From the NCBI GenBank assembly GCA_040756875.1, contig JBFLYH010000001.1, forward strand, positions 1,372,878-1,436,877: 64,000 nt of DNA. The letters run 5' to 3'. This document shows, one piece after another, positions 23,208 through 55,344 of the stretch. Below the pieces are notes generated by a model. That model made no database searches, was not told the origin of the DNA, and was given only the letters and a program-made list of their open reading frames with translations. Made by a program: the position numbers and the translations under genes. Numbering within the stretch: the stretch's first letter is position 1; every line of letters begins with the position of its first letter. This DNA is from a candidate division FCPU426 bacterium. Its GTDB lineage: Bacteria; Oederibacteriota; JAAXVQ01; JAUVAV01.

Positions 23208-23236
23208 TTAGACCGGACGCCAAGGGGAACCTTGCT
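23208..23236 (-). promoter_or_regulatory. ECF-type promoter candidate (weak -35)
   Basis: AGCAAG-N17-GTCTAA. Confidence 0.45.
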
Positions 23237-24477
23237 TACTTCACCAGCGCAACCTTTTTCTTTTCGCTTCGGACAATGCCACCCTGCTGGTTGGAAATCC
23301 TGATCGTCAGCAGATAAATCCCGGGCGCGGCTTCCGGCGCATTCCAGACGCAGGTCAGCATCTGTCCACTGCCGCCATCCCGGGACTCCAGGATGTGCGC
23401 CACCCTTTCCCCGCACATATTGTAAATATCCACTGCCACTTGAACCTGCCCCTCGGCCGGATAGGCGATCACCACCCGGTTACGGGCCGGATTGGGATAG
23501 ACGGTCGTTTCACTCAAACGCAGAAGCGGGGAGGGCGTGGCGGTCATCGTCGCCGTCACGGTGGGAGTCCCCGTATCCGCAGGGGTCGGCGTCACGGTGA
23601 ATGAAGGCGTGACCGTGGGCGTCGGTGATAGGGTCGGAGTGTCGGTCCAGGTGCCGGTGGCAGTGAGCGTCGGCGTCATCGTCAGCGTCGGCGAAGCTGT
23701 CGCGGTAAATGTCACGGTCAGGGTCGGGGTCGCGGTCGGCGTGGCAGTGGAAGTTTCAGTAGCCGTAGAAGTCGGCGTAACGGTCTGGGTTGGAGTCGAA
23801 GTCAGGGTGACGGTCGGGGTGAGGGTCGGCGTGGGCGTGGGAGGCGGCATGCGCACCGTGACGTAATCCACGACAAAGTAGGTGCTGCCAAAACCCTCGG
23901 CCGTCAGTTGCACGCGGAAAGTGTGCCCCGGGCCGATCCACCCCATGATCGAGGCATAATTAAGGATGAATGTCCCGGTTGTGCTTGTGCTGGAGACAAG
24001 GTCCCGATACTGCCAGGCCCCGTTGATTTCCTGGATGCCAACCTTCCATGTCATGGATGGCGAGAGCGAGGTCACGCGGATCTCAATGTGCGTGAAAACA
24101 CTGGTGTTTGGAGAAAGGAGCGGAGAAAGCACCTTGCCCCAGGTGCTGTCCGCTGTCCGCGTCACGGCCGCTTGCGAAACCAGGCAGGAGTAGGAAATAT
24201 GCGCATTGAACAGCGGATCGTCGCTTTCATCCTGCCAGCCTGCAGGCTGTGCACCCGGCGGTCCTGCATCAAAGTCGTCCCGCCAGTATTCATAAGTCGG
24301 CGTATTGGTCGGAGTGGGCGTGCTGGTGGAGGTGCAGGTGTGAGTTGATGTCGCCGTCAGGGTAGGTGTGTCTGTCGGGGAGGCGGCCCAAAGCCCCTCT
24401 CCTTGGGCCAACAAAACCAGCCACAGGCCGGCCGGTATCATAAGGGTGTGCTGCATTACCCTTTTCATGGGCATCAA
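23236..24477 (-). CDS. Secreted protein: one repeated module + Thr/Pro linkers + T9SS type-A-like CTD
   Basis: Signal peptide; WRDDF..QPAGWQDE...TRTADSTWGKVLSP module; YPNP...GERVA...PGIY...KKVALVK. Confidence 0.8.
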   Translation of the reverse strand: MMPMKRVMQHTLMIPAGLWLVLLAQGEGLWAASPTDTPTLTATSTHTCTSTSTPTPTNTPTYEYWRDDFDAGPPGAQPAGWQDESDDPLFNAHISYSCLVSQAAVTRTADSTWGKVLSPLLSPNTSVFTHIEIRVTSLSPSMTWKVGIQEINGAWQYRDLVSSTSTTGTFILNYASIMGWIGPGHTFRVQLTAEGFGSTYFVVDYVTVRMPPPTPTPTLTPTVTLTSTPTQTVTPTSTATETSTATPTATPTLTVTFTATASPTLTMTPTLTATGTWTDTPTLSPTPTVTPSFTVTPTPADTGTPTVTATMTATPSPLLRLSETTVYPNPARNRVVIAYPAEGQVQVAVDIYNMCGERVAHILESRDGGSGQMLTCVWNAPEAAPGIYLLTIRISNQQGGIVRSEKKKVALVK

Positions 24478-24507
24478 CAGCCAGTTGCAACGAATACCGT
24501 TAACTTT

Positions 24508-24536
24508 TCAGACTATGCTTGACTCCTTTCTTTTCA
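24508..24536 (-). promoter_or_regulatory. ECF-type promoter candidate
   Basis: TGAAAA-N17-GTCTGA. Confidence 0.45.
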
Positions 24537-24661
24537 AAGAAAAACCACGTCTGATTCCCGGCCTTCTCATCATTCTAATTATATCACTGTTTCGAACGGA
24601 TCGTTCCCGGAAAAAGGCTTGTTTTACAAGGCGTTCTTCAGGCATGGCATCTACCAGGCTT

Positions 24662-28162: not shown

Positions 28163-28243
28163 AAACCCCCCAGAAGTCTGACGACTCTGGCTAACCCCTG
28201 CTTATATTGTATCCTTAAAAATCCCTATAAACACTATCTATAT

Positions 28244-28272
28244 TTAGACTAGCTCATTTAGCTAATATTTCC
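28244..28272 (-). promoter_or_regulatory. ECF (RpoE-like) promoter
   Basis: GGAAAT-N17-GTCTAA. Confidence 0.7.
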
Positions 28273-28280
28273 GTTTTTCC

Positions 28281-28320
28281 AAATAAAAAGGGGGGCAGAG
28301 GTTATCCCTCCGCCCCCCCC
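28281..28320 (-). terminator. Intrinsic terminator after 28339..30822
   Basis: GGGGGGCGGAGG/CCTCTGCCCCCC stem followed by TTTTTATTT. Confidence 0.8.
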
Positions 28321-28338
28321 TAAAGGCACAAACATAGT

Positions 28339-30822
28339 TTATTTGATAATAGCGACTTTTTTCTTCTCTTTCATAAGCACCTGTCCGCCTGCATCCGTGA
28401 TTACAATCCGGCATAAATATACGCCCGGCGCCACGTTCACCGCATCCCAGGCAGTCCTCAACGTCTGGCCGGTTCCGCCGTTTACCGTTTCCGTGACCGA
28501 AGCCACCCGTTCACCCGCCAGCGTAAAGATATCGATGGTTACTTTCCCCGCGCCGGGCACGGTGTAGGCAAAAAACACTTTGCCTTTGGCCGGGTTGGGA
28601 TAGGGCAAGACCTGGTTGGCAGCCACGAAAGGCGTGGCCGTCGGGGTGGCGGTCGGCGTGGGGGTATTCATTGCCAGTTGCGCGGTTGGCTCAGGCGTGG
28701 GGGTCAAGGTCAGGGTTGGAACGGGTGTGGAGGTTGCCGAAAAAGTTGGAGTCGCGGGTATGTAGATGGCGCCTAGTACGGTCTCTTCGCCGCCCACACG
28801 CACCCAATCCACTTCCACGGCCTTGCCCGGCGCACCCTCCACGGTCAGCTGGACGCGGAAGGCGTGCGTACCACTCCATCCTGTTGCGGTTGCGTAATTA
28901 TACTTGTATGTTCCGGTTCCGGTCTGACTTCCGCTGAGGTTGTAGTAGGTCCAACTGCCCTCAGCCTCCTGGATGCCGACTTTCCAGCTGGCGTCGACGC
29001 TCACCGAAGCCACGGCTACCTCCACATAGCTATATACCGAAACATTGCAGTTGATGACCGGCGAAAGCACTTTGCCCCATTCACCCTCGGCGGTGCGCGT
29101 TACCGCGGCCAGTGAGCTGACCGCGGAGTAAGCGATTTCGGCGTTGAAATTGGCGTCATCCGTTTCGTCCATCCAGTTCGCGGGTTGTTGCCCCTGGGTG
29201 CCCGCAAAATTCTCGAAATACGCATTGCTCGGTGTCGGAGTGGGAGTGGGCGTTATGGTCGGCGTGGGGGTGGGCGAGGGCATGCCTTCACGGTGAATCC
29301 GCACCTGGTCAAACGTGACAACGCAATTGCCGCCCTCGGAAATCAGTTCCACCCCCAGGTTTTTCACCCCGCTCCAGCCGGAGGCGGTCGGGATGTCGAA
29401 GGAATAGGTGCCCGGCGCCGCCAGCGAACCGCTGCAGACATGCTCCTCCCACCCGCCGGCCTGGCTGAACACCGCGATCTTGGCCGTGCCGCCCGAAATG
29501 GCCGAGATCGTCACCTCCAGAGTGCTGTACAGGTTCAAATTCACATCCGCAGAATAGGACAGCACTTTGCCCCACTCCTGGCCGGAGACCGTGGTCACTT
29601 CGGCCAGGCTGTCTGTGGCCGCGTAGGCGATCTGGGCGTTCATGCCGCCGTCGTCCGATTCATCGTACCATCCTGCCGGCTGCGCCCCCTGCGAGCCGCC
29701 GGAGAAGTGCTGGTTCCAGAACAGGGGGTTGTTTTCCCACCAGTCGATCCGGTCGCCCCCGAACGTGGGCGCGACGACATCGGCATCGCCATCCCCGTCC
29801 ACGTCAGCGGTTATCACATCAATCACGCCCCCGTAATTGTCATCGATGACATGGGCGGTGATATTTTCGGAGCCGTCGTTCTCCCACCAGACGATGTCAC
29901 AGGAATCCTTGGCGCAGCCGACCACATCCAGGTCCCCGTCATTGTCCATGTCGGCCGCCAGGACGGATTGCGCTCCGTCGAAGCCGGTGGCGATGACATG
30001 TTTGGTAAAACTCATCGACAGGTTGTTCTCATACCACGCAACCGTATCCTGCCCTTCGGAAGCCGCCAAAATGTCCACGTCGTTGTCCTGGTCCAAATCC
30101 ACAGCCACCACATCCGTAGGATCGATAAAATTCGAGTCGACTACCCTCTCGGTATATTTATCGAGAGAAGGGTCGTATTCAAGGACCAAAATGTCCTCGA
30201 CATCAACTGCGCCTGCAATGACATCAATATCCCCGTCATTGTCCATATCACCGGCGTCGATGAAATAAGTATACTTCGGATTGACGAAGACGTTTTTTTC
30301 AACAAAGCCGCCGGAGCCGTTGTTGATCCATTTGATAATATCGCCCTGGTATATCTTGCTGCAGAGCACGTCCAGATCATTGTCCAGGTCCAAATCCTTG
30401 ACCCTTATCTTTTTGATCCAGGCAAATTCCGGGTATGGCTCCGAGGTCATGTTGTGGTGGGTGAAATTCTCCGAGCCGTCGTTCTCCAGCCACATGGAAC
30501 GGCTGCCGCCGACGGCAATATCCACATCCCCGTCCCCGTCCAAATCGCCGGCACTGACCGTATCATCATACTTGATATTTGTCCCGGCCGTATGCCTGAT
30601 AAAATTGCCGACACCGTCATTTTCCCACCAATAAACCGTTTGCTCCACAATGCCAATAATGTCCATATCGCCGTCAGTATCCAAATCCGCAGCGCAAATT
30701 TCCAAAGGTCCATCGACGCTATCCTCGACTTCGCGTTTTTGAAAGTCACTGCTCCAAGCCAAGGATTGCAGTAAAAGCAAGGCCGCACCCAACATGCCGT
30801 ACCGGACGATTGAATTGCGCAT
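28339..30822 (-). CDS. Secreted FG-GAP/VCBS beta-propeller protein with 2 repeated modules and T9SS-like CTD
   Basis: Seven D(L/M/V)D.DxD.D...W.EN-type blades; two modules; YPNP...KKVAIIK. Confidence 0.82.
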   Translation of the reverse strand: MRNSIVRYGMLGAALLLLQSLAWSSDFQKREVEDSVDGPLEICAADLDTDGDMDIIGIVEQTVYWWENDGVGNFIRHTAGTNIKYDDTVSAGDLDGDGDVDIAVGGSRSMWLENDGSENFTHHNMTSEPYPEFAWIKKIRVKDLDLDNDLDVLCSKIYQGDIIKWINNGSGGFVEKNVFVNPKYTYFIDAGDMDNDGDIDVIAGAVDVEDILVLEYDPSLDKYTERVVDSNFIDPTDVVAVDLDQDNDVDILAASEGQDTVAWYENNLSMSFTKHVIATGFDGAQSVLAADMDNDGDLDVVGCAKDSCDIVWWENDGSENITAHVIDDNYGGVIDVITADVDGDGDADVVAPTFGGDRIDWWENNPLFWNQHFSGGSQGAQPAGWYDESDDGGMNAQIAYAATDSLAEVTTVSGQEWGKVLSYSADVNLNLYSTLEVTISAISGGTAKIAVFSQAGGWEEHVCSGSLAAPGTYSFDIPTASGWSGVKNLGVELISEGGNCVVTFDQVRIHREGMPSPTPTPTITPTPTPTPSNAYFENFAGTQGQQPANWMDETDDANFNAEIAYSAVSSLAAVTRTAEGEWGKVLSPVINCNVSVYSYVEVAVASVSVDASWKVGIQEAEGSWTYYNLSGSQTGTGTYKYNYATATGWSGTHAFRVQLTVEGAPGKAVEVDWVRVGGEETVLGAIYIPATPTFSATSTPVPTLTLTPTPEPTAQLAMNTPTPTATPTATPFVAANQVLPYPNPAKGKVFFAYTVPGAGKVTIDIFTLAGERVASVTETVNGGTGQTLRTAWDAVNVAPGVYLCRIVITDAGGQVLMKEKKKVAIIK

Positions 30823-30885
30823 GCCACACCTCCGAGTTAATCAGGCAAATCCCCCAAGTCTTTATACCTTGGGGTTGAATATGGG

Positions 30886-30915
30886 GTAGACGCAAATGTC
30901 TCACATTTTATTACA
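30886..30915 (-). promoter_or_regulatory. ECF-type promoter
   Basis: TGTAAT-N18-GTCTAC. Confidence 0.6.
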
Positions 30916-30966
30916 TTTATTTTTGCTTATTATATACATGGTTTCTATTTGGCGTATAAATAATTG

Positions 30967-31000
30967 AAAAAGGGGCGGGCTGCCACTGGCCACCCGCCCC
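30967..31000 (-). terminator. Intrinsic terminator after 31035..40526
   Basis: GGGGCGGG...CCCGCCCC stem + TTTTT. Confidence 0.78.
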
Positions 31001-31034
31001 CGTGCGAAAGAACGCCCACAGCTGCGTTCTGTGC

Positions 31035-34000
31035 CTACTTGATCAGCGCCACTTTCTTGGTCTGGTTGAGGACGATCTTCCCTTCCCCGTCTGTTACCAC
31101 GACCCGCACCAGGTAAATCCCCGGAGCCACACCGGCGGCCTTCCAGCTGGTGGTCAGCGTCTGGCCCGTGCCCTGCTTGTGTTCCACAATGCTCGCCACC
31201 CTTTCGCCGGTCAGGCGGAAGATGTCGATTTGGACTTTCACCGGCCCGTTAACCGTGTAGGCGAAATTCACCTGCCCGCGCGCTGGATTGGGATAGGCCG
31301 CCACGGTTTGCGCCTTGACAAAGGGCGTGGAAGTGGAAACCGGCGTCGGCGTGCCCGTGGCTGCGGATATAATCGTTTCCGGCGTGCTGGTCTTGGTGGC
31401 CGTGGGAGTCGGGGTCGGCGTCGAGGTAAGGGTGGAAGTCGGCGGAATGTAGATAATGGCAGCCTGGGCTTCCTGCTGCATGAGTTGGTCGCCCACGGCC
31501 TGCGCTTCAGCCTGAGTTTCAAAGTTCATGCTGGCAGTTATCTTTTCATCCATCCGTTCCACTGACGCGGCGCTTACCCACCAATCCGGCACCACGATAA
31601 TGGGAACATAGCTGATTCCTCCCAATCCCTGGTTGTCCACACTGATGATATTGACCTCCCAGTTCTTGTTGCCGGCGGTGAAGGCGGCACTGGCCGGTTC
31701 TCCGGCAGGACCGGTGATGCGCGTGACTTCTTTCACTCCGCCGAAAGTGCCGGAACCGGTTATCACGCGGTAACGCAGGGTGATACTCGGCTGCGGTGTA
31801 AGTTGATAGAGCGAAGTCGCCAAGATATTCTGGGTATGCGTAGTGTGCATGAAGTAAGACAATTCCGGCCAGGCCCTAACCCTTTGCGGAGTTTTCGGTG
31901 TCGGCGTGGGCGTCGGCGTGATCGTCGTTTCCGAAGTTGAGGTATACGTCTCGGTCGGCGTATGGGTATAGGTGTAGGTTTCCGTCGGCGTCTCGGTGAG
32001 TGTCGGAGTCAGCGTCGGGGTATAGGTCGGCGTATCCGTTGCCGTGTCGGTCCACGTTTCGGTCGGGGTCTCGGTCGGCGTGTCCGTGGGCGTGTCGGTC
32101 GGGGTCTCGGTATACGTGTACGTCGGTGTCTCAGTTGGGGTGTCGGTCGGGGTGTCAGTTGGCGTCTCGGTCCACGTTTCAGTCGGAGTCTCGGTCGGTG
32201 TATCCGTGGGCATGTCAGTCGGGGTCTCGGTATACGTGTACGTCGGTGTCTCAGTTGGGGTGTCGGTCGGGGTGTCGGTTGGCGTCTCTGTCCACGTTTC
32301 GGTCGGTGTCTCGGTCGGTGTATCCGTGGGCGTGTCAGTCGGGGTCTCGGTATACGTGTACGTCGGTGTCTCAGTTGGGGTGTCGGTCGGGGTGTCAGTT
32401 GGCGTCTCGGTCCACGTTTCAGTCGGAGTCTCGGTCGGTGTATCCGTGGGCGTGTCAGTCGGGGTCTCGGTATACGTGTACGTCGGTGTCTCAGTTGGGG
32501 TATCTGTCGGGGTGTCGGTTGGCGTCTCCGTCCACGTTTCAGTCGGTGTCTCGGTTGGTGTGTCCGTGGGCGTGTCGGTCGGGGTCTCGGTATACGTGTA
32601 CGTCGGTGTCTCAGTTGGGGTGTCGGTCGGGGTGTCGGTTGGCGTTTCCGTCCACGTTTCAGTCGGCGTCTCGGTCCACGTTTCAGTCGGCGTCTCGGTC
32701 GGCGTCTCGGTTGCTGTTTCCGTTGGAGTCGGGGTTGGAGTCGGGGTGATTTCCGGCAGATAGAACGGCGTTCCAGGTACGCCTGTGGAGGAATAAAGGT
32801 TGATCCGGCCTATCACATTTCCGCTCTCATAGTATCCAGGAGCGCCCACCATAAACTCCGCCAAGCTGTCTCCGTTAATATCTCCTGTTCCGGAAACAGC
32901 CACGCCGAAGCTTGAGCCGGTTTGATCACCGGCAATAATCCAATAGGGTTCAATACCCAGTCCGGCGGCGGATCCCAGGAAGGTATAAACCCGTCCCGTA
33001 GGATTGTCCCATGTCCACCCACCCGTCGCGCCTACCGCAACATCCGGGTACAGGTCGCCGTTTATGTCGCCAATTCCTGCCACACAATCACCGAAATGTT
33101 CGCTGGCAACATTGCCCTCGGCTGTCCAAGCTGGCACTGTCTGCAACCCAGCTGCCGAGCCGAGATAGAGATAGGCGGCGCCTCGGCTGTCCGCGGCATT
33201 CAGATAAGCTCCCACCATCACATCATCATATCCATCCCGGTTAACATCCCCGGCTGAAGCGACTGAAATCCCATAGCCGCTGCCTGAAGATCCCGCGACC
33301 ATCCATGCAGGCGTGGTTGCCAATCCAGCGGCCGACCCCAGATATACATACGCCTTGCCGGTCTGCCGGGCGCCTATAACCACATCGTCAAAACCGTCGC
33401 CATTGACATCGCCGGCCGAAGCGGCAGAACAGCCGAAAAGATCGTTGATATTTTCCCCTTGAGCAATCCAGTCCGGGGTTGAATTGAGCCCCAGAGCCGA
33501 ACCCAAATAAACGAACACATGCCCTCGCATGCTGTCGTAAATATAACCACTGACCATGACATCCGCATAACCGTCATGGTTCACGTCGCCGGCTGTCGCC
33601 ACGACGCCCCCAAGCTGTTCATTGGCCGCGCTGCCATAGACCGTCCAGGCAGGGGTTTGCGACAAGCCTTCAGCCGAGCCTAAATACAAATAGGCCGCGC
33701 CTTGATTGGTCGCTGCTTGGCTGTAACCATAGGCTCCAATGACTACATCCTCAAAACCGTCTTGATTCACGTCGCCGGCCGAACCTACAGTGCCGAAGCA
33801 GGCGTTGGTCTGCGGACCGGCCATTGTCCAGACCGGGACCGTGGTCAGGCCTGAGGCAGATCCCAGAAAAACATCCACGCGCCCCGTATTGCTGTTCCAA
33901 TTAGGACTGCCGACGATTAAGTCCGGATAGCCGTCGCCATTTACATCCGCCCGATCCTGGTATGATCCGGTTTGAGACTGTTGTATCCCTTTAAGAATCC

Positions 34001-37000
34001 AGACTGGAACAACTGAAGGAGTCGGCGTCGGTGTTTCGGTGAAGGTGGAAGTCGGCGTCTCAGTCGGCGTCTCAGTCGGCGTCTCGGTCGGCGTGGGGGT
34101 TACTTCCGGAAGCCCGCTGCCCTGGAGAATCCGTAAAGCACTACTATCCGCCACGTATATCAGATTCCCGACCAACTGCAAATCCGTGGCTACACCCGGC
34201 GTATCAAAGAACCCGGTCTCATATGGCCGGTAAGGATCAGCGACATTGAGAACTCTAACACCCGAATATCCGTCCGCAACCACGGCAAACGGCCACGCAA
34301 CAGCAACATCCAGGGCTGCAAACGGCGTGTCATAAAAACCGACATAAACAGGAGCCGTCGGATTCGATACGTCCACAATCCGCACGCCCCCATAATAGTC
34401 CGCGACAAAAGCATATCCATTGGACACGGCGACTTTCTGGGCCCCTCCCGGCGTGTCATACAAGCCAATCTGTACCGGAACCGCGGGGTTGCTGACATCA
34501 AATATTCGCAAGCCTGCCGTGCCGGCAGCGACATAGGCATATGTTCCTTCCACCTGGATTCCCTCGGCTTGATTGGGTACCGCAACCTGTCCCGCGAGTA
34601 TGGGATTGGCGGGATCCGCGACATCCAATATCATCAATCCTTCGCTGCCGTTCGCGAGGTAGGCATAATGCCCGGCAACTTGAATATCCTGCGCCTGCAT
34701 CATCTCCTGATAATGCCCGACTTCCACGGGTATTGCGGGATTGGAAATATCGACTATTCTCAAACCAAACTCCATGCAGGCCACATAGGCATATATTCCC
34801 GAAACTGCCACGGCGGCGGCATCACCCTCGCTGATTTGATAATACCCCAGTTCACTCGGAGCCGCAGGGTTGGATATGTCAATAATCCGCAAGCCGTCCA
34901 TCGCAGCGGCTGCATAAGCACGCTGACCGGCAATGAAAACGTCCTGGATACTATTGATTCCCAATGCGCCTAACTGGGCAAGGGCGATTCCTGGCAAAGG
35001 CGTCGGGGTCTGCGTTGGCCATTGAATGGGCGTCGTTGTCGGCGTAGGAGTCGGCGTGGGAGCCGGTCCCGGCAACCCGGTGATTTCAAGTATGCGCACC
35101 CCGCCTTCATCTCGAGGAGCCGCATAGGCATACAAATCCTTGATAGCGCAGCTTACGATTCTTTCGGTCGCAGTATAACTAGCCACCTCAAAAGGAGCTG
35201 CGGGATTGGCGATATTAACCATACGCAATCCAGCCAGATCACAAGAAAGGAAGGCATAGTCGCCAGCCAGGCACACCTCTTCAACATTTCCGGAAGTAGT
35301 ATAATGTCCGACTTCCACTGGCATTGCAGGATTCGACAGGTCAATGATCCGCAATCCGCCGGTCAAATCCGCCACATACGCCATAGCGCCCTGCACCATA
35401 ATGTCTCGGGTATATCCTGGAGAACCATAAAAAGACGTTTCAACCGGATGACGGGGGTCTGAAACGTCAATGATTCTCACGGCAGTGCCGTCGGCTACCA
35501 GCGCATACTGTCCCAACATGGCAACATCCATCGCATTTCCCGGGGTGTTGTAGAATCCGAGTTCAACCGGATGGGTAAGATCCGAGCAATCCAATATTTG
35601 CAGACCGCTTTCCCCTTCCGCAATGAATGCATACTGACCTGATACGGCAATATTATACGGGAACCCAGGGGTATAATACGTCGAAACAGCAGTCGGATTG
35701 GAGGGGTTGGAAATATCCATCACAACCAGAGGGTTCGACCCAAGAACATACGCATGGTTGCCCTCCACCCGCAGATTGCGCGCTCCCGCCACATTCATCA
35801 ACCCGACAGGAGTGGGCATAGCCGGATTCGACACATCCAGGATTTCAATCCCCAGCGGGCCGCCGCACAGGAAAGCGAGCTGCCCGGCCACCACAATTTT
35901 TTCCGTATTTTCACTACTATACTCGCTAATTTCATGCAGCCCGATGGTCGCGGTCATTGTTGGGGTGGGTGTCGGGGTCGGGACAAACGTCGCATAGATT
36001 CGCACAGCATCGAAAGTGGCCGAGGCACCGTTCGGCCCTTCCACTGACAGCTGAACTCCGTACAACTGCACGCCGCTCTCGCCGGTTACGCTCGGAATGT
36101 CAAAGATATAGGTCCCGGGCGCGTTGATACTGTCCCCGCTCAGCAGATCCCAGAATTGATACGGCGGTGTGGGGCCAGGATGGAAGACACCCACCCGTAC
36201 TGTCGCGCCGTTCAAACTTGTGATCGTGACAGCCAGTTTGGTGAAGATAGACAGGTCCACGTCTTGTGAGAATGAAGCCACCTTGCCCCAGCCGCCGTCA
36301 TTGGCGACTGTTACCTCAGCCAGACCATCCGTCGCGCTGTAAGCGATTTCCGCGGCCGGACTGATCGTATCCGAGGCATCATACCAACCCGCAGGCTGGG
36401 CGCCCGGCGTACCTCCACTGAATTCCTCCAACCAGAGCGTGTTGATCGGAGTGGAAGTCGCAGTCGGCGTGGGCGTTAAAGTAGGCGTTTCGGTCATCGT
36501 CGGCGTAGGAGTCGGTTCCGGCGCGAAGATCCGGATTGAATCTATGGTTACGATCCCGCCGTTCCCGCCCTCCGCGGAAAGTTGCAGGGCATACAACTGC
36601 ACGCCGGTCTCGCCGGTGGTGGTCGGAATATCGAACACATAAGTTCCTGGCGAATTGATGCTCGCTTGGCCTTGCAGGAAATCCCAGAACTGATACGCCG
36701 GATCCGGATGGAAAATGCCCACCCTAAGCGCGGCGCCGTTCACGGCCGCCACTTTAATTTCCACCTTGGTATAGTAAGAAAGATCCACGTTTTGCGAGAA
36801 GGATACAACCTTGCCCCACCCGCCGTCGTTGGTTATGGTGATCTCCGCCAGTCCGTCGATAGCGGCGTAAGCAATTTCCGCCGAGGGAGCGATAGTATCC
36901 GTGGCATCGTACCAGCCGGCGGGCTGGCCGCCGGGCGTACCGCCGGTGAACTCCTCCTGCCACAGGGTCATGGGCAAGGGCGTGGGGGTTGGGGTGATGG

Positions 37001-40000
37001 TAGGCGTGGGCGTTTCCGTGGGCGTGGGAGTAATCGTGGGTGTTTCGGTTTCAGTCGGGGTTGGCGTAGGCGTGGCTGTCAGCTGAACCGGCGGCAGCAT
37101 GGCCGTCTGGCCGGCCTGCAGGAACTGCAGGTCCTCGATATAAGTCCGGTACTTGCCCGTTGCGGTCGGCTCATCGAATCCCACCATGACCAGGTCGATG
37201 ATCTTGCCTTCCAAGGGCGACAGATCAGCTTCCACGTAGTACCAGGTATTATAGGGATCCGCGCGTCCGGCCGGATGCATGTCAACACCGTATTGGTCCT
37301 TGATCCCGGTGTTGCGCAACTCCGTCCCATCCGTGCAATGGAAGTCGACGGAGACGTGGTGGTTGCCTGCCTCGCCGTTCTGTAAATGGTAGATCCGGTA
37401 GACCATATGCATGCCGGTTTCGATGGTAATGTTGTGGAAGGGCTGAATCAGGTCGCTGTACAGGCGGTAATAGCAATAAGCCGGCGCGGCCACGGCATTG
37501 CCGCCGGCCATGAGGAATTTCTGGCCGCGGAAAGCAGGCACGCCCGCTTCGCCGCCGGGGCGCGGGCTGCACTCGGGCGGCAGATAGGAATAGAACCCCT
37601 CGACATTCTGCGAGGCCAGGACCGTGTCCCGGAAGCCGCCGTTTTCGCCGATCTCCCAGTTGCACTGGACCGGCTCCACGCCCGGGTCCGCCCCGGTAAA
37701 TATTTTCAGGCGGTCGATGAACGCCTCGTAATGCAATCCGTTCGCGCCCGTGTCAAAGCCCACGCGGACCTCGTTGATGGTCTTGCCCGCCAGGCCGGAC
37801 AGGTCCGCCTCGACATAGGTCCAGGCGTTGGACTCCACGTCGCGGTAGGCGGGATGCATGAGATAACCGCGCTGGTCTGAAATGCCGAGATTGCGCAGGG
37901 CTGTGCCGTCGCTGAAGATCAGGTCGATGCAGACATGGGTGTTGCCCTGTCCCAGGCCGTCTTTCCGGTTGTAAATCCAATACGACAGGCGCGTGTCCGC
38001 CACGACCGCAATCGGGCTGAAGCCCGGGTAGGAGGCATCGAACAATTGATAATAGCAATAGGCCGGAAGGGACTGGTTTTCCACCTGGCCGGCCACATAC
38101 AGGTAGCGCGGGCCTTCCAGGCTTGCCACGCCGTTGTAGCCCGCGTCCGTCACCATGCACACGGGCATGGGGTAAGGATCGTATCCAATGAGATTGCTGG
38201 CAGCGATCACCTGAGTGGAATAGCCTTCCATCTCGCCCAGGTTCCAACTAGTTTTCAAGGGATAGGTTAAATGGGAGGTCGGGAGTTTGGGCGGAATGGG
38301 TGTGGTTTCTTTAAGAAGGCGGAAATAATCGAATACACCGTTATCGCCAGGATTACTTCCATTGATCCAGACCTTGATCGAGAACTGCGAAGGATCAAAC
38401 CCATTTGCTACTGTATTAATGTTCACGCGGTACGTTCCTGGCGTGTTAAGTCCGACAAAAGCGGGATAATAAGTGGGCGATACAAACTCTTGCTGGACTC
38501 CAATGTCGAAGTACGTTCCTGGCGTGATGCTGTCCAGCTTGACTTCCAGGGTATTGAATACCATGCCGCCGTGCGCTGTGGTCGTGACATCGCGGAAGAT
38601 TGGGGAAATCACATTGCCATATTGAGGCGAAGTGCTTGACAGGCTAATAATGCCGCCAGAAGAACCGTTGCCGGCAATGGTTGCGTTGGAATCATTTCTC
38701 CAGCCTGGCGGCAGCACGCCTGCCGGGCCGGTGAAATCCTCGTCAAAACCCTCGGGCTCGCCCGGGCCGCCGTGGATGGCAATCTGATTGGCGTAGTCGC
38801 CCAGCGAAGCCAGGCCCGACTGGAACAACTGCCCGACCGTGTACCAGCCCAGGCCGATATACCCGTTGTCCGTGAGCATGCGGAAGGCGTCTTCCATCTC
38901 GAAGGTCGTGTTCGAGCCGGCGTTCTCGCCGTATTTTTCCATGCCATACTGGTCGACCAGCCAGGCGTAATAATGAGGGGCAGACCAGTTGGGGTTCAGC
39001 AGACTGAGTTCCCAGGCCGGTTCGTGCACGGGCTGAGTGCTCCAATCGTCCTCTTTCCAGGCTTCCCCGCGCCAGACCGCCTGAAGCGCGGTGTTGGCGA
39101 ACAGAACATTTTTACGGTCCGCCAGACCAGCCAGATAACGGTCCGGAACAAAGCCCCGGTTCACCCAATAGTAATTGCGCGTCAGGCCGGCCAGATCGCT
39201 GTTGGCTTCGGCTTCAATATCTCCGGACCGGGCCATGAAGCCGCCGCCCATGAGCAGCAGGCGGCCGTCGTAATATTTTTTCATGGTGGTGATTTGCCAA
39301 TTGATGAAATCCGTCAGGTTCTGGTAGTACCAATCGAGGAATGCCTGGGCGGCGGACGGATTGTACGTGGTGCCGTCGGTAATGGAAATGTCGTCGAAAT
39401 CAACCGTGGCCAGGGTTGCCGGGCCCGTGACAAACAGCTCCACATAGGCTTTGGCTGTGTAAGTCACCGAGGCGAAGCTGGGGCTGGTCACTGTGGTCCA
39501 GGTAGTGGCCGAACTCGCGACATTGGTCATTTCGGACCAGGTAAACGCCCCGGTCGGCTGGAAGACGCGGATGTTGCCGGTCACACCCGGGGTATTGCTT
39601 CGGATGCGTCCGCTCAGAGTGTACGTGGTGTTGGGTTTAAGGACAATGCTCTGCCGCAAATGATATTCCCGGCCACTCTGATCAGGCGGGGTGGTGTAAC
39701 TTAAATAATGGCTGCCTTCGGGCGCGCCGCCGGTTTGCACGTTCGGCTGCCAGCCGCTTTGATAATAGCAGTCCAGCGTATTTTCCCAATTGGCGATGGT
39801 GTTGGCATAGTAAGTGTCTTCGAATCCGCCGTTGACCACACGCTGGCCCTGGATGCCCGTGGCACCGGGCATGAAGGAGGCGGCCAGAGGGTTCGAGGCA
39901 ATGGCCGCCCGGGCATACGGGTCCCAGGCCCAATAGCAATTGCGATGGCCGTAATAGTCGTTCGCTTCGGGATAAGCGACTTCGCCCCAGCGCCCCACGG

Positions 40001-40526
40001 TCAGATAGACAGCCCAAAAATTGTTGCCCAGGTCGGAAAACACCCGCGCCAGGTAACTTTCGAAAGCCGTGCGGTAATTCGGTTCCCAGATGCTGACCAG
40101 GGAGTCAGGCGCATTGCCATGATTCTCAGGGTCCCAAGGCGAACCGTACTGGTTGACATAATGGGCGTTCGGATGGGCGGTCCAGTACCAATCCGGCACC
40201 GGGAAGGGGTTGACGCGCAGGACAATGGCAAACCCTTTTTCGCGCAATTTGCGAATCTCGGCCTGTTTCTGGCTGATGTAATTGGCGTCGTATACGCCCT
40301 GACTGGGTTCGTACAGCGCCCAGCGGATGTATACGTTACGCAGTCTGAGCCCTGCCGTATATTCGGCGTCGAGATGGGAGGCATCCGTGGGTTCACCGTG
40401 ATTAGGCTGGCCGGGATTGGAAATGGACTCGTCCCAGGCTGTCCCGTAAAAAGCGGCTTGAGCCGGCGAAAGGGACAAGCTGGCAAATAGAATAGAAAGA
40501 ACAACGAATGTTTTCTTGCCTGGCAT
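31035..40526 (-). CDS. Giant secreted multidomain protein (3163 aa): GH14/GH42-like barrel with CBM-like insert, accessory modules, two LVIVD propellers, FG-GAP propeller, Thr/Pro repeats, T9SS-like CTD
   Basis: [27 protein letters not shown] insert; GLRI(I/V)D(I/V)SNP repeats; AGDVN.DG(Y/F).D repeats; YPNP...KKVALIK. Confidence 0.8.
32050..32660. repeat. Coding tandem repeat, 120-nt period, about 5 copies (40-aa [40 protein letters not shown] unit)
   Basis: The identical 40-mer ggggtctcggtatacgtgtacgtcggtgtctcagttgggg starts at 32101, 32221, 32341, 32461 and 32581. Confidence 0.95.
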
Positions 40527-40716
40527 ATGCAGGAGACCCCCTCCGGCAGGTTGGTGTGTCGGAAAAAAGACGGAAGATAATGTTTTTCCGGATCAGCGAC
40601 GGAGGAAACCCAAGGATATAGTGGGAAACGGGTAAGGAAATATAAGTATATCACAAAATCAGTTAAAATCAATTTTACGCCTGAAAATAAAGTGCTTTTA
40701 TCTTCCTACTTTACAG

Positions 40717-40745
40717 TTAGACTCAGGCAAAACGTTTTTATAACA
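40717..40745 (-). promoter_or_regulatory. ECF-type promoter
   Basis: TGTTAT-N17-GTCTAA. Confidence 0.7.
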
Positions 40746-40749
40746 CCCT

Positions 40750-40789
40750 AAAAATAAAACCAGGGGCGCATACTGCCTGCGCCCCTGGT
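40750..40789 (-). terminator. Intrinsic terminator after 40818..41768
   Basis: ACCAGGGGCGCA/TGCGCCCCTGGT 12-bp stem + TTTATTTT. Confidence 0.85.
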
Positions 40790-40817
40790 CGGAATTCAGT
40801 CCAACGAATCAGGCTTT

Positions 40818-41768
40818 TTAAAAACGAACCGCCACGGCCACCTGATGGATCAATCCCAGATCACCATAAGAGCCCAGCGCATAGTCCACGTTGAAGATAT
40901 CCAATTTGAACCCTATTCCCGCGGTCAGCCCTGCGATCCCGCCCATCTCGCCTGTATCCTTGATCTTGTACCCTACCCGCCCGGCCACCAGCTGGTCATA
41001 CCAGTATTCAGTGCCCACGTTGACGGAAGTATAATTGACGTCGCCGAAAGGCAGGTTGACATCAAGCGCCACATTCCAAATGTCCCGGGAAGAGACCAGG
41101 GCCGGAAGCACGTAAGCGGCGCCCGCCTTGGCGTTCATGGGCAAATAAGCATCCGCCACTTTGGTCCCCAGGTTCTGGACCGCCAGTCCGATCTGCAACC
41201 CGTCTATGCCGGGCTTTAGCAAACCGCCCACATCCACAGCCACGGCGGAATACGTTTCAGTGTCGATGTTTTGGGTGAATACTTTCACCGCGCCGCCCAC
41301 AGCCAGATTTTCCAGCAACCACTGGCCGTAGCCGGCCGAGGCTGTCATCACATACGGGGTAAACTGGCCCTGGTCGACCGGCATCCCTGTGGCTTCATCA
41401 AAACCCGTTTTATCAATGGCGCCGTAGTTCAGGTAAGTCACATTGGCGCCAATGCCTGCGCCCGCGAAGAGATTCTGAGCGTACGCCAGGTACTCCTGGG
41501 ACGTTTCCTCCAGGTAAATATTGTGCATGAATCCGGCCTGATAGCCTTGCATTTGGGCCAAGCCCGCCGGGTTCCAGGCCAGGGCATTCAGGTCATCGGC
41601 CAAAGCCACGTACGCCTCGCCCATGGCTACGGGCCTGGCGCCCAGTCCCAACTTCAATTCCGACGCCCCTACCTTGCCGATATCATAATTCGTTTGCGCC
41701 GCCCAAACCACGCCTCCTGAAGAGATAATGACGACGACGGCCAGCCAAGCGATAATCGTTTTTGTCAT
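40818..41768 (-). CDS. PorV/PorQ-family outer-membrane beta-barrel
   Basis: Signal peptide; GARPVAMGEAYVALADD..A..WNPAGL; amphipathic strands; C-terminal Phe (VAVRF). Confidence 0.82.
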   Translation of the reverse strand: MTKTIIAWLAVVVIISSGGVVWAAQTNYDIGKVGASELKLGLGARPVAMGEAYVALADDLNALAWNPAGLAQMQGYQAGFMHNIYLEETSQEYLAYAQNLFAGAGIGANVTYLNYGAIDKTGFDEATGMPVDQGQFTPYVMTASAGYGQWLLENLAVGGAVKVFTQNIDTETYSAVAVDVGGLLKPGIDGLQIGLAVQNLGTKVADAYLPMNAKAGAAYVLPALVSSRDIWNVALDVNLPFGDVNYTSVNVGTEYWYDQLVAGRVGYKIKDTGEMGGIAGLTAGIGFKLDIFNVDYALGSYGDLGLIHQVAVAVRF

Positions 41769-41841: not shown

Positions 41842-41861
41842 TTCATTTTTTGATTTTTTAC

Positions 41862-41901
41862 CCGCAGGGCGCCCGAAGGCATGCTTGGGGCGCCCTGCAG
41901 G
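41862..41901 (-). other. GC-rich hairpin after 41926..50547 (no U-tract)
   Basis: GCAGGGCGCCC/GGGCGCCCTGC stem; followed by an A-rich run on the minus strand. Confidence 0.6.
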
Positions 41902-41925
41902 ACAAAAGTTCCCGGGAACTGGCTG

Positions 41926-50547: not shown

Positions 50548-50622
50548 GGAAGTACCCCCCGAATGATGTTTCCGTAACACCTGTATATATAATGAATCGC
50601 AATGGATATTGTTAACCAGAGG

Positions 50623-50651
50623 TTAGACTAGGCAGGACGCGGTTTATAACA
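50623..50651 (-). promoter_or_regulatory. ECF-type promoter
   Basis: TGTTAT-N17-GTCTAA, identical boxes and spacing to 40717..40745. Confidence 0.7.
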
Positions 50652-50656
50652 GGACT

Positions 50657-50696
50657 AAAAAAAGAAAAGCCCTCCGGCTGGCAACCGGAGGACTTT
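50657..50696 (-). terminator. Intrinsic terminator after 50720..51664
   Basis: CCTCCGG/CCGGAGG stem followed by GCTTTTCTTTTTTT. Confidence 0.8.
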
Positions 50697-50719
50697 GACA
50701 GGCAAAAGGCGATAACGCT

Positions 50720-51664
50720 TTAAAAATGCACTCCCACGCTGAATTGGTGGGCCGTGCCCAGGTCTCCAAAAGCAGCCAGGGCGTAATCCACCACCAACAA
50801 TTCGCCGCGGATGCCCAGCCCCAGGGTCAGGCCGGTCGAACCGCCCAAGCCTCCGGTTTCGCGGATTTTATAACCCAAGCGCAGGGCGTAATTCGTGTAC
50901 CAGTATTCGGTTCCCAGATTCGCGGACACGTACCGGGTATCTCCGAAGGGAACGTCCACGTCCAAAAGCACGTTCCAACTGTCCTTGTCGAACAATTGGA
51001 CCGGCAGTTTATAGGCCGCGCCCACCTTGGCCGCCAGGGGCAGGTTGAAATCCAGCACCGGCGTGCCCAGGTTGCGCACCACGGCGCCCAGCTGCAGGTT
51101 CAGGACCGGCGGCTTGACCAGCACGCCCGCGTCAAAGGCCACGGCTGAATAGCTCTCGGTGTCGATGGTCTGCGAAAAATACTTTATCGTCGCGCCTACG
51201 GCCACCATGGGCACCAGCCACTGGCCGTACCCGGCGGAAAAGGCCAGCACCGACGGCGTGAAATCCCCCTGCGCTTCCGGCAGGCCGTCGCTTCCCACCA
51301 CGTATCTGGAAAATTGGCCGTAATTAATGTACATGAGGTTCGCGCCCAGGCCCGAACCGCCGAATATATTTTGGGCGTAGGCGAGGTATTCCACCGAAGT
51401 ACCCTGGAGATAAATGTTGTGCATGAACCCGGCTTCGATCCCGCCAATCTGGGCCAGGCCGGCGGGGTTCCAGGCCGTGGCATTGACATCGTCGGCCTTG
51501 GCGATGAAAGCCTCGCCCATGGCCACGGGCCTTGACCCCAACCCCAGCCCCAGTTCAGAGGCGCCCACCTTGCCGGCCGCAAAATCCGTCTGATCGGCCC
51601 ATCCAGCCGCCACCCAAACGGCAGCCGCGCCCAGCGCGGCGATCAAGTGATGCCAACGGATCAT
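50720..51664 (-). CDS. PorV/PorQ-family outer-membrane beta-barrel (paralog of 40818..41768)
   Basis: GKVGASEL.LGLG.RPVAMGEA, WNPAGLAQ, AGFMHNIYL and EYLAYAQN shared with the paralog; C-terminal Phe; 21 bp downstream of the six-module gene. Confidence 0.82.
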   Translation of the reverse strand: MIRWHHLIAALGAAAVWVAAGWADQTDFAAGKVGASELGLGLGSRPVAMGEAFIAKADDVNATAWNPAGLAQIGGIEAGFMHNIYLQGTSVEYLAYAQNIFGGSGLGANLMYINYGQFSRYVVGSDGLPEAQGDFTPSVLAFSAGYGQWLVPMVAVGATIKYFSQTIDTESYSAVAFDAGVLVKPPVLNLQLGAVVRNLGTPVLDFNLPLAAKVGAAYKLPVQLFDKDSWNVLLDVDVPFGDTRYVSANLGTEYWYTNYALRLGYKIRETGGLGGSTGLTLGLGIRGELLVVDYALAAFGDLGTAHQFSVGVHF

Positions 51665-51685
51665 GACGTTCCTCCTGTCATCCGA

Positions 51686-54600: not shown

Positions 54601-55231
54601 CGTCCCACCAGTTGGTCGGCTGATCGCCGGCTATGCCCACGAAATGGTCCTGCCAAAAGTTGGACGTTGGACCGCCGGGCGTGGCCGTGGGCGTGATGGT
54701 GGGGGTAAAGGTCGGCGTGCCGGCAACGTCATAGATGCGTACGGAATCCACGACCACGTATGTTCCCGTGCCACCTTCTACGATGATCTCCACGCTGAAC
54801 ACGTGCACTCCGCTCAGCAACCCGGTCAGCGTGGCATAGTTGAACGGAAACGTCCCGGTCCCGGTTTGCGACCCACTCAAATCCCAGTGCCGGTAGCTTC
54901 CCTCCTGCTCCTGGATCCCCAGCTTCCAGCTGGTGCTGGCTGAAAGCCCGGTGACCACGATCTCAATCATCGGATTAGCGGCCACATCCAAAGTCTGCGC
55001 CGGCGACAGCACCTTGCCCCACGTGCTCTCCGCCGTGCGCGTCACTGCGGCCATGGAATTAACATAGGAATACGCGATGTGCGCGTTGAAATTCAAGTCC
55101 TGCGTCTCGTCCCACCAGTTGGTCGGCTGGTCGCCGGCCGTACCCACGAAATGTTCTTCCCAGACATTGGCCGCCTGGGTATTGACCGCCGCGAACACGA
55201 TCAGTCCCATCACCGCGAGTATTTTTTTCAT
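51686..55231 (-). CDS. Secreted non-catalytic protein of six tandem repeated modules + T9SS-like CTD
   Basis: Signal peptide from ATG 55231 (MKKILAV); six W.(D/E)HF.G..G.QP..W.D(E/D) units with Thr/Pro linkers; YPNP...KKVAIIK. Confidence 0.85.
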   Translation of the reverse strand: MKKILAVMGLIVFAAVNTQAANVWEEHFVGTAGDQPTNWWDETQDLNFNAHIAYSYVNSMAAVTRTAESTWGKVLSPAQTLDVAANPMIEIVVTGLSASTSWKLGIQEQEGSYRHWDLSGSQTGTGTFPFNYATLTGLLSGVHVFSVEIIVEGGTGTYVVVDSVRIYDVAGTPTFTPTITPTATPGGPTSNFWQDHFVGIAGDQPTNWWDETQDSSYNAHIAYSYTSSMAAVTRTAESTWGKVLSPAQTVNTATYPMIEIVVSGVSASTSWKLGIQEQEGSYRHWDLSGSQTGTGTFPFNYATLTGLLSGTHVFSVEIIVEGGTGTYVVVDSVRIYSGSSGTPTFTPTITPTVTPGGPTSNFWEDHFVGLAGDQPTNWWDETQDANFNAHIAYSYINSMAAVTRTAESTWGKVLSPAQTADVAAYPMVEIVVTGLSASTSWKLGIQEQEGSYRHWDLSGSQTGTGTFPFNYATLTGLLSGVHVFSVEIIVEGGTGTYVVVDSVRIYGTSNTPTNTPTLTKTPTITPTPTASPTFTITNTPDLVNTHTPTPTITATRTITRTFTPTPTSTTGTGTYNSWQDHFIGTAGDQPTNWTDETQDATFNAHIAYSYTSSLAAVTRTAESTWGKVLSPNQTVDVGFYPMVEITVSGLSAGATWKLGIQEQEGSYSHWDLSGSQSGVATQSFNYAALTGWNTGTHVFSVEIVVEGGAGEYVVVDQVRIYGTTPPATFTVTNTPDVVNSATATPTITATQAITAFWSDHFTGGTPGQQPAGWLDDTDTISFNLEISYSAVNSYAALTRPAGSEGWGKVLTSNKTVDVGQYPWLQVVVSNVAGGAQWKLGIQEQEGSFRHWDLNTETGSVGTFNFNYATLTGLNTGVHTFSVELVLVGDAPATVTLDLVQIYMLGVPPSPTITPTPIPTVIGWEDHFIGTPGQQPANWEDESQNPAYNLEIAHSTTYSWAAVTRNADSTWGKVMSPALTIDTAQFPLVQISVKGISTATQWKLNIQELEGSYATYEIQANNANLGTFEYNYAAVAGWNSGTHRFSVEIAVEGGAGKYVELDFVRIAGYGFPTATPTVTPTYTATPWVAKNDFLAYPNPATDRVIFGYQANGPVTATLDIYRMTGERVASVQEQAVGSPSQVLTMVWNAAQVAPGIYFCRLVVTNDQGLQVVNQVKKVAIIK
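53715..55165. repeat. Three near-identical direct repeats (~510-nt period) encoding modules 1-3
   Basis: Long shared DNA blocks, e.g. agttgaacggaaacgt(t/c)ccggtcccggtttgcgaccc at about 53821, 54331 and 54838. Confidence 0.9.
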
Positions 55232-55315
55232 TCCAGCCTCCCCACCAAACGGCCTCAGGCAGGATACGCCCAAAGCCTTGTATATATCGGGATTATATCA
55301 TAGCGCAATATATAG

Positions 55316-55344
55316 TTAGACTTGCAAAATACCCAAATCGTTTC
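55316..55344 (-). promoter_or_regulatory. ECF-type promoter
   Basis: GAAACG-N17-GTCTAA. Confidence 0.62.

Follow-up and report, generated by a model that had tools for sequence, protein, structure and literature searches.

A two-box promoter motif upstream of type IX secretion cargo genes in a candidate division FCPU426 bacterium, with a neighbouring ECF sigma factor as its proposed reader

A 64,000-nucleotide stretch of the genome of a candidate division FCPU426 bacterium (assembly GCA_040756875.1, contig JBFLYH010000001.1; hereafter the window) carries, on its minus strand, an array of genes for type IX secretion system (T9SS) cargo proteins that have a C-terminal domain (CTD), interspersed with genes for PorV/PorQ-family proteins. 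A preliminary description of this DNA had placed promoters of the kind that extracytoplasmic function (ECF) sigma factors read, with a −10 box resembling GTCTAA, in front of eight genes of the array. We judge six of these eight to be, very probably, genuine promoters of this type from a two-box motif that is specific to the cargo/PorV module and conserved in the lineage. We further consider it moderately likely that these promoters are read by the product of the ECF gene located in the same window, whose own expression would depend on sigma-54, and that the whole forms a cascade over T9SS cargo genes resembling that of HrpL.

The cargo-class promoter motif

All eight proposed sites are present on the minus strand, each upstream of a start codon and in the same orientation as the gene that follows. 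The exact hexamer GTCTAA occurs at six of them, and these are the only copies in the window; all six lie on the minus strand in intergenic regions of the array, where GTCTAA is the hexamer common to most regions (six of eight). These eight intergenic regions comprise 1376 nucleotides with a GC content of 43.8%, and hold six copies in the sense and none in the antisense orientation, compared to 0.28 expected. Not one of 20000 dinucleotide shuffles reached even five copies. For the window as a whole the number is ordinary, as shuffles of the entire window would lead one to expect 10.2 copies and 6 are present.

The −35 boxes of the array are mixed. Four sites carry TGTAAT or TGTTAT, and the others carry GGAAAT, TGAAAC, TGAAAA and AGCAAG. 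From the majority of these sites a cargo-class motif can be written as (T/G)G(T/A)(A/T)A(T/C)-N17/18-GTCTAA. Its strict form, TGTWAT-N17/18-GTCTAN, is found five times in the genome (6.4 Mb, both strands) compared to an expectation of 0.35, with a spacer of 17 nucleotides at three sites and 18 at two, and with only zero to two matches at the other spacings from 8 to 30. All five strict-form sites are intergenic and co-oriented, and each precedes a T9SS CTD gene or a PorV/PorQ-family gene. Four of them are located in the array (30886, 40717, 41812 and 50623), and the fifth, on contig 3 (C3:165630), lies 42 nucleotides before another CTD gene. When the −35 pattern is relaxed to [TG]G[ACT][AT]AT, matches among all 204 GTCTAA sites of the genome again peak at spacers of 17 (nine sites) and 18 (three sites).

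A class matrix was also trained on eight sites from five other genomes and then scanned over the genome of the window, a 3.22 Mb assembly with a GC content of about 60% in which our own codon-bias caller predicted 2266 genes (88% coding). As a null distribution we took the top score from every one of 1104 other upstream regions (maximum 22.6), after removing upstream regions shorter than 60 nucleotides and any that lie in the window's array part. Sites 41812, 40717, 28244 and 30886 rank 1, 2, 5 and 6 genome-wide and outscore every null region. Rank 3 coincides with the last few nucleotides of a paralogous ECF gene and lies upstream of a gene for a 2443-aa CTD protein, and rank 4 precedes a 589-aa PorV-like gene. 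The scores of the remaining array sites are matched by 0.5% (50623), 1.8% (55316), 7% (24508) and 36% (23208) of the null regions.

These results retain most of the proposed eight-promoter set, namely sites 28244, 30886, 40717, 41812, 50623 and 55316. They also agree with the ECF-type architecture that had been assigned to it, which includes two conserved boxes at a spacing of 16 to 18 nucleotides, a GTC in the −10 box and a co-oriented position upstream of genes. Site 24508 is a weak candidate, both by its matrix score and by its GTCTGA box, which is barely enriched upstream of genes. Neither of the variant −10 boxes of the array shows an upstream enrichment comparable to that of GTCTAA genome-wide (39 sense and 31 antisense copies for GTCTGA, 12 and 11 for GTCTAC). 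Site 23208 belongs to another class, which is described below.

For comparison, we took loci that encode relatives of the ECF and PorV-like proteins, together with their flanking DNA. The sequence TGTAAT-N17/18-GTCT(A/G)(A/T) precedes PorV-like genes at loci L016/L022, L018, L019, L026 and L029, and TGTTAT-N17-GTCTAA precedes a 1615-aa cargo gene in L018. Locus L016 carries GGAAAT-N17-GTCTAA, TGTAAT-N18-GTCTAA and TGTCAT-N18-GTCTTA. The motif seen at site 41812 is thereby present in front of PorV-like genes of five other genomes. Sorted by eye, 16 PorV-like loci include six with the motif, four with clear TTGACA/TATAAT-type promoters, two in which the gene lies directly behind a cargo gene, and four with neither arrangement. 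The motif-bearing loci span several genera, and their intergenic DNA is otherwise unalignable. Gene order recurs as well, both in the same-genus genome and in other genera: an NtrC-type regulator, an ECF sigma factor, a Kelch protein in some cases, a PorV-like gene and CTD cargo follow one another in L016, L018, L019 and L082, with the Kelch gene keeping its position after the ECF gene in the last three. In the reverse direction, a matrix built from the six window sites scores 17 bits or more at 11 places in 183 kb of the relatives' cluster loci, and 192 kb of control loci contain no such match. In these respects the interpretation given in the preliminary description is supported: the motif is specific to CTD cargo and PorV/PorQ-family genes, and it recurs in relatives beside kin of the window ECF gene.

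Within the same genus, the −35 and −10 blocks are identical and the spacers have diverged. For example, the counterpart of site 55316 keeps TGTGAAACGA and AGTCTAA around a spacer that differs. The counterparts of the other sites read GGAAAT-N17-GTCTAA (28244), TGTCAT-N18-GTCTTA (30886), GGTTAT-N17-GTCTAA (50623) and GTCTGG at the −10 box (24508).

It is very improbable that the motif is functionless and owes its presence to chance or to a shared ancestry of intergenic regions that were duplicated within the array. In favour of this view, the regions at 40717 and 50623 are alike beyond the boxes, and same-genus intergenic regions are approximately 73% identical overall. However, the motif recurs in other genera, with GC contents of 43 to 55%, between flanks that cannot be aligned; the number expected by chance is 0.28 to 0.35, depending on the count; and every copy lies on the gene strand.

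Several points weigh against the reading of these sites as ECF-type promoters of a cargo regulon. The regions at 40717 and 50623 are probably duplicates, and therefore do not count as independent cases. The training sites from relatives were chosen for their resemblance to the motif, such that their sequences are not blind, although their positions are independent. In a genome of 60% GC, A/T-rich matrices such as these are biased towards intergenic DNA, and the gene calls are the output of a crude caller. Because same-genus intergenic regions are 70 to 77% identical overall, the footprint is weak when taken alone. In same-order relatives the exact motif is counted 30 times versus 15 for a reversed-pattern control, and among the 40 relatives counted there is no enrichment above control level beyond the order. 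Of 26 exact-motif matches in relatives, only seven have an ECF gene of the subfamily within 30 kb, and two of these seven are inside long reading frames. With a rough chance estimate of about 10%, this co-localization was judged too weak to be used as support. Finally, the −10 box is common to a larger class of sites, and cross-reading is possible.

Two additional features of the sites were observed. The units at 40717..40790 and 50623..50696, each composed of a PorV-like gene, a hairpin, a promoter and a giant cargo gene, share tgcct(g)aGTCTAAc and ttta-g...TGTTATAAA, and look like copies of a duplicated module. In addition, GTCTAA ends 42 or 43 nucleotides before the start codon at five sites (23208, 41812, 50623, 55316 and G000:C3:165630, where G000 is the genome of the window), which suggests a leader of fixed length.

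A second promoter-like class with the same −10 box

The hexamer GTCTAA is a genome-wide −10 box and is not confined to the array. There are 204 copies on both strands of the genome, 121 of which fall in the 12% of the sequence that is called intergenic, and 86 of these 121 face the next gene. Within 250 nucleotides upstream of genes, 52 copies are in the sense and 19 in the antisense orientation, which corresponds to an eight-fold enrichment. In upstream regions genome-wide, GTCTAA is the strongest strand-asymmetric hexamer after ribosome-binding-site words. The hexamers TTGACA and TATAAT are enriched upstream too, and the housekeeping promoter is therefore of the usual type.

The preliminary description had treated the genes behind these sites as one regulon. 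The full two-box motif is specific to CTD and PorV/PorQ-family genes, but the hexamer alone does not define the regulon. Only eight of 69 hits to Por_Secre_tail, the CTD family, and three of 22 UPF0164/PorV-like hits carry GTCTAA within 300 nucleotides upstream in this genome. These fractions rule out GTCTAA as a general mark of T9SS cargo promoters. Moreover, most of the −35 regions that can be recognized among the 204 copies belong to another class and precede unrelated genes. A single regulon for all GTCTAA sites is likewise ruled out by the presence of at least two −35 classes, each of which precedes its own set of genes.

In the larger class the consensus reads aaaaa-cGCATGAAAA-N13-ccGGTCTAAt. 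Sequences with at most two mismatches from GCATGAAAA are found at the corresponding position in 22 of the 204 GTCTAA sites, compared to three at a control position. The core GCAWK occurs at a spacer of 17 in 21 GTCTAA sites and in zero to two sites at every other spacer. Matches to GCAWK-N17-GTCTAA number 21 in G000, 15 in G001, 32 in G003, 18 in G004 and 18 in G005, versus two to three for the reversed control, and on these counts the class is conserved through the family. Its members precede genes for toxin-antitoxin-like proteins, a Flp-type pilin, a DUF1016-like protein and an IS200-like transposase, among others, where the names derive from reading the translations. Examples are located at G000:C2:161645, C2:196233, C2:1065778 and C3:158981. 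In the window, the class is represented by site 23208..23236 (GCAAGG...CCGGTCTAA), whose −35 region fits this consensus and whose low score in the cargo-class scan does not bear out its earlier grouping with the cargo promoters. The −35 boxes of the two classes differ at four of six positions, and the classes precede different sets of genes.

Organization of the array

The features of the array and of the adjacent regulatory genes are collected in Table 1. All seven array cargo proteins with a Por_Secre_tail domain, ranging from 413 to 3163 aa, score 27.7 to 34.0 bits compared to a cut-off of 27 in the genome search; in a protein scan with the same model, three of the seven reach the cut-off and four fall just under it (23.1 to 25.1 bits). 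The PorV/PorQ-family proteins exceed the cut-off of the family model NF033709 and remain below those of the PorV and PorQ equivalog models. The preliminary description had included one PorV-like gene in the regulon, but the array contains two. The gene at 40818..41768 has its own promoter-like sequence, and that at 50720..51664 is probably co-transcribed with the cargo gene preceding it.

Table 1. Features of the cargo gene array and its regulatory neighbourhood, in minus-strand order. Distances run from the end of the −10 box to the start codon; promoter scores are those of the cargo-class matrix.
Feature	Position	Strand	Remarks
NtrC-type response regulator gene, 3′ end	63911..64000	-	whole gene 456 aa, extends past the window to 65281
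Sigma-54-type promoter (−24/−12), putative, TGGCATGGCGTTTGCT	63705..63720	-	ends 30 nt upstream of ECF start codon
ECF sigma factor gene, 205 aa	63057..63674	-	Pfam Sigma70_r2 and Sigma70_r4_2; TIGR02937 79.5 bits (cut-off 42.9)
Kelch-repeat secreted protein gene, 960 aa	59996..62878	-	Pfam Kelch families; signal-peptide-like N-terminus; next after ECF gene
CTD cargo gene, 1509 aa	55421..59950	-	PF18962; best upstream matrix score 4.2
Promoter-like TGAAAC-N18-GTCTAA	55316..55345	-	42 nt before 1195-aa gene; 16.2 bits
CTD cargo gene, 1195 aa	51686..55273	-	PF18962
PorV/PorQ-family gene, 314 aa	50720..51664	-	NF033709 150.8 bits (cut-off 90); 21 nt behind 1195-aa cargo gene
Intrinsic-terminator-like hairpin, 14 pairs and T run	50666..50696	-	just upstream of 50623 promoter
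Promoter-like TGTTAT-N17-GTCTAA	50623..50651	-	42 nt before 2884-aa gene; 19.3 bits
CTD cargo gene, 2884 aa	41926..50580	-	PF18962
Promoter-like TGTAAT-N18-GTCTAA	41812..41841	-	43 nt before PorV/PorQ-family gene; 30.7 bits, best in genome
PorV/PorQ-family gene, 316 aa	40818..41768	-	NF033709 164.1 bits (cut-off 90)
Intrinsic-terminator-like hairpin, 13 pairs and T run	40758..40790	-	
Promoter-like TGTTAT-N17-GTCTAA	40717..40745	-	190 nt before 3163-aa gene; 29.0 bits, second best in genome
CTD cargo gene, 3163 aa, LVIVD and FG-GAP repeats	31035..40526	-	Pfam
Promoter-like TGTAAT-N18-GTCTAC	30886..30915	-	63 nt before 827-aa gene; 24.5 bits
CTD cargo gene, 827 aa, FG-GAP	28339..30822	-	Pfam
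Intrinsic-terminator-like hairpin, 15 pairs and T run	28287..28321	-	
Promoter-like GGAAAT-N17-GTCTAA	28244..28272	-	81 nt before 1166-aa gene; 25.1 bits
CTD cargo gene, 1166 aa	24662..28162	-	Pfam
Weak candidate TGAAAA-N17-GTCTGA	24508..24536	-	30 nt before 413-aa gene; 12.0 bits
CTD cargo gene, 413 aa	23236..24477	-	Pfam
GTCTAA site with second-class −35 region GCAAGG	23208..23236	-	42 nt before 303-aa gene; 5.1 bits as cargo class
303-aa gene, FlgD_ig-like C-terminal domain	22254..23165	-	Pfam

Six of the sites have a GC-rich hairpin of 10 to 16 base pairs in front of them, which lies after the stop codon of the upstream gene and before the −35 box. Four of the six are followed by a run of T nucleotides, and three were flagged by a terminator scan. 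The genes behind these hairpins therefore appear to be separate transcription units, each of which needs a promoter of its own. A typical unit would consist of a GC-rich hairpin, an A/T-rich stretch, the −35 box, a spacer of 17 to 18 nucleotides, GTCTAA, a leader that is mostly about 35 nucleotides long, and the gene. In the matrix scan, no cargo-class promoter was found before the Kelch gene or the 1509-aa gene.

Alternatively, the genes might be driven by housekeeping-type promoters or by read-through, in which case the two boxes would represent a binding site for a regulator or an element of the leader RNA. Sequences resembling sigma-70 promoters do occur downstream of sites 40717 (40672..40645, in the leader) and 23208 (23200..23172, overlapping its downstream flank), and the former also weighs against an assignment of the 3163-aa gene to the ECF-type promoter. 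Furthermore, some PorV-like genes of relatives have the clear TTGACA/TATAAT-type promoters mentioned above, and the hairpins before 41812 and 55316 have no T run, so that read-through is possible there. However, the pattern seen here, in which two conserved blocks at a fixed spacing of 17 to 18 nucleotides flank a spacer that has diverged, is the hallmark of recognition by a sigma factor. The five other supported intergenic regions (28244, 30886, 41812, 50623 and 55316) contain no sigma-70-like match of at least 9/12 on the gene strand, and strong terminator-like hairpins stand before at least three sites. We therefore regard control by housekeeping promoters or read-through as improbable, and favour ECF-type promoters at the six sites.

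The long 190-nucleotide leader of the 3163-aa gene contains two overlapping sigma-70-like matches on the minus strand at 40639..40672, TTGATT-16-TATACT with a TG element and TTAACT-16-TATATT. This gene may have two promoters.

The ECF gene and a proposed HrpL-like cascade

The protein encoded at 63057..63674 has the sigma-2 and sigma-4 domains, the absence of sigma-3 and the length of about 200 aa that define ECF (group 4) sigma factors. Its scores against NCBIfam equivalog models are all far below the cut-offs. Its closest relatives of solved structure include E. coli sigma-E, SigW and a Pseudomonas-type chain labelled 'sigma-H factor'. The genome encodes 13 sigma-70-family proteins, approximately nine of which are ECF-sized. 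Members of the subfamily to which the window protein belongs have mutual bit scores of 77 to 241, compared to 0 to 92 with the other ECF proteins of the genome, and the window protein groups with cluster ECF proteins of two other genera. The Kelch gene that follows is probably co-transcribed with the ECF gene. Among the adjacent genes there is none for an anti-sigma factor, and the neighbouring Kelch protein carries no anti-sigma domain. The best cargo-class score upstream of the ECF gene itself is 13.9 bits, a value reached by 3.6% of the null regions.

The ECF gene is preceded by the putative sigma-54-type promoter TGGCATGGCGTTTGCT, the only match to TGGCAY-N5-TTGCW in the window; the strict pattern TGGCMY-N5-TTGCW has 22 matches genome-wide. 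Sigma-54-type boxes precede the ECF gene in 10 of the 13 loci examined, and rpoN is present in the genome. The adjacent regulator contains Response_reg, Sigma54_activat and HTH_8 domains (Pfam, L080:989-2359), and directly upstream of its gene lies a histidine kinase gene with a HATPase_c domain (L080:2375-3739). At the sequence level the locus therefore has the hallmark of an HrpL-like arrangement, which is a putative sigma-54 promoter at the ECF gene together with an adjacent gene for an enhancer-binding protein. Three copies of the module of kinase, NtrC-type regulator and ECF gene are present in the genome, all of them close to CTD or PorV-like genes, and the module with its sigma-54-type promoter is also found in several relatives. 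In one of the paralogous copies (L001; the other is L002), the regulator and ECF genes are separated by a small receiver-only reading frame, and the −12 box is imperfect.

These features suggest the following mechanism. A signal sensed by the histidine kinase would lead to phosphorylation of the adjacent NtrC-type enhancer-binding regulator, which would activate the sigma-54 promoter at 63705..63720 and thereby transcription of the ECF gene. The transcript would probably include the Kelch gene and the 1509-aa cargo gene, both of which are without a cargo-class promoter of their own. The ECF protein would not be held by an anti-sigma factor, and its amount would be set by transcription. RNA polymerase loaded with this sigma factor would then read the six promoters at 28244, 30886, 40717, 41812, 50623 and 55316, which would drive five large or giant CTD cargo genes and one PorV/PorQ-family gene, with the second PorV/PorQ-family gene expressed from behind a cargo gene. 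The output would be a set of giant surface proteins together with a dedicated outer-membrane shuttle of the PorV/PorQ type. In this scheme the sequence itself shows the motifs with their rarity, strand, spacing, gene association and conservation, as well as the order of the genes and the families of their products; we infer the activity of the promoters, the identity of the sigma factor that reads them and the activity of the sigma-54 promoter. The pairing of the ECF protein with the promoters is drawn from gene order and family association, and we attach moderate confidence to the cascade.

The sites could also be genuine ECF-type promoters that are read by a different sigma factor, either one of the paralogous sigma-54-linked ECF proteins or the sigma factor of the GCAWK-N17-GTCTAA class, with the adjoining ECF gene only loosely linked to the array. 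This is unlikely, though less so than the other alternatives. Both promoter classes share the −10 box and the spacer, and any of the three paralogous ECF proteins could read the boxes. The ECF protein of the same-genus cluster is only 37% identical to that of the window, and in one relative a motif-bearing PorV-like gene lies at least 32 kb from any gene of the ECF subfamily. Against this stand the four differences in six positions between the −35 boxes of the two classes, their separate gene sets, and the fact that no fewer than four other genomes have the cargo-class motif next to an ECF gene of the subfamily. The adjoining ECF protein thus remains our preferred reader of the array promoters.

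More broadly, and as a tentative proposal that we would put at somewhat less than an even chance, the lineage might possess a family of sigma-54-dependent ECF sigma factors that lack anti-sigma factors, with each module (three in this genome) serving as the main switch for an island of giant T9SS surface proteins and a PorV/PorQ-type shuttle of its own, representing an independent invention of the HrpL logic in another secretion system. The same proposal includes a two-part promoter code, in which GTCTAA is shared by two or more sigma factors that are told apart by the −35 box alone (TGTAAT-like versus GCATG-like).

HrpL, a member of ECF32, is described as being transcribed from a sigma-54 promoter through HrpR and HrpS, without an anti-sigma factor or autoregulation, and with two-component and secretion genes nearby (PMC8999054, PMC7826278, PMC5263251). 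Like the HrpR/S-sigma-54-HrpL system of Pseudomonas syringae and its relatives, the window has, as far as its sequence indicates, an ECF gene with no adjacent anti-sigma gene, a sigma-54-type promoter, and two-component and secretion-related genes around it. Unlike HrpL, the predicted targets belong to a T9SS-like rather than a type III secretion system and encode cargo and PorV/PorQ-family proteins instead of machinery, and the host is a member of a candidate phylum near Goldiibacteriota and Firestonebacteria. The hrp box of HrpL promoters also differs from the boxes of the array.

A second system for comparison is PorY-PorX-SigP of Porphyromonas gingivalis, in which PorX is reported to bind the SigP protein directly, the amount of SigP depends on PorX, and control is exerted over machinery genes, including porV (PMC4800418). 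The SigP motif proposed in the same article is a single A-rich element (PMC4800418). Both systems would involve a two-component system that acts through an ECF sigma factor on T9SS-related genes. However, the regulator here is predicted to be an NtrC-type sigma-54 activator that works at the ECF gene's own promoter, and the predicted targets encode cargo. With its receiver, sigma-54-interaction AAA+ and HTH_8 domains, the adjacent regulator does not fit the PorXY-SigP type.

The promoters of RpoE and AlgU, for which a consensus of GAACTT-N16/17-TCtgA is given for AlgU (PMC10651043), resemble the array sites in having two boxes, a similar spacer (16 to 17 nucleotides there) and a −10 box of the TCnnA type. 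They differ in the −35 box, which is TGTAAT- or TGTTAT-like in the array rather than GAACTT, and no gene of the RseA/MucA anti-sigma type lies beside the ECF gene.

Among titles and abstracts outside subscription journals, we did not find a cascade leading from sigma-54 through an ECF sigma factor to T9SS cargo. To our knowledge, how T9SS cargo genes are controlled has been worked out in detail in no more than a few Bacteroidota, and for candidate phyla with CTD proteins we know of nothing comparable. The present result is a regulon prediction and not a new principle, given that ECF promoters, transcriptionally controlled ECF sigma factors and ECF control of T9SS genes are each known; what is new is a variant of these kinds of regulation in an uncultured phylum. 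It provides a defined motif and a plausible three-step cascade with compact parts, consisting of one ECF gene and promoters of about 35 nucleotides. The model is therefore directly testable and can be moved to a laboratory host despite the lack of a culture of the organism. The annotation of operons and regulons in these genomes could benefit from it, and the pair of ECF protein and promoter may prove to be orthogonal for circuit design.

As for the secretion machinery, a candidate for SprA/Sov is a 2149-aa frame at G000:C1:864000-870000, whose match to TIGR04189 is broken into five collinear segments that all score under the cut-off. A search for GldM with TIGR03517 yielded nothing in this genome, but the control drew a blank as well and the search was uninformative. 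Several secreted proteins linked to the system that do not match Por_Secre_tail end in similar short stretches, such as ...ILLDYVRVYGYK and ...FDEIKIGSQEN. Such C-termini are present in the Kelch protein (59996..62878), at L018 2170..5103 and L019 1859..4804, in several downstream frames, and at G000:C3:375428-376477. They may represent a different sorting or anchoring signal.

At position 6946 of locus L082, in the intergenic region that precedes the gene for a 1012-aa CTD cargo protein of one relative (G012), there is a sigma-54-like box, TTGGCGGGGAAATTGCATT. In some relatives, a cargo gene may thus be read by sigma-54 directly.

Outside the window, the genome also contains eight copies of a conserved element of about 110 nucleotides that includes the hairpin CCCCATGAAAAATC...GATTTTTCATGGGG. 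They are located at G000:C1:128198, C1:1309126, C1:1482899, C2:163301, C2:177726, C2:892476, C2:945864 and C3:21393. This element could be a small RNA or a mobile repeat.

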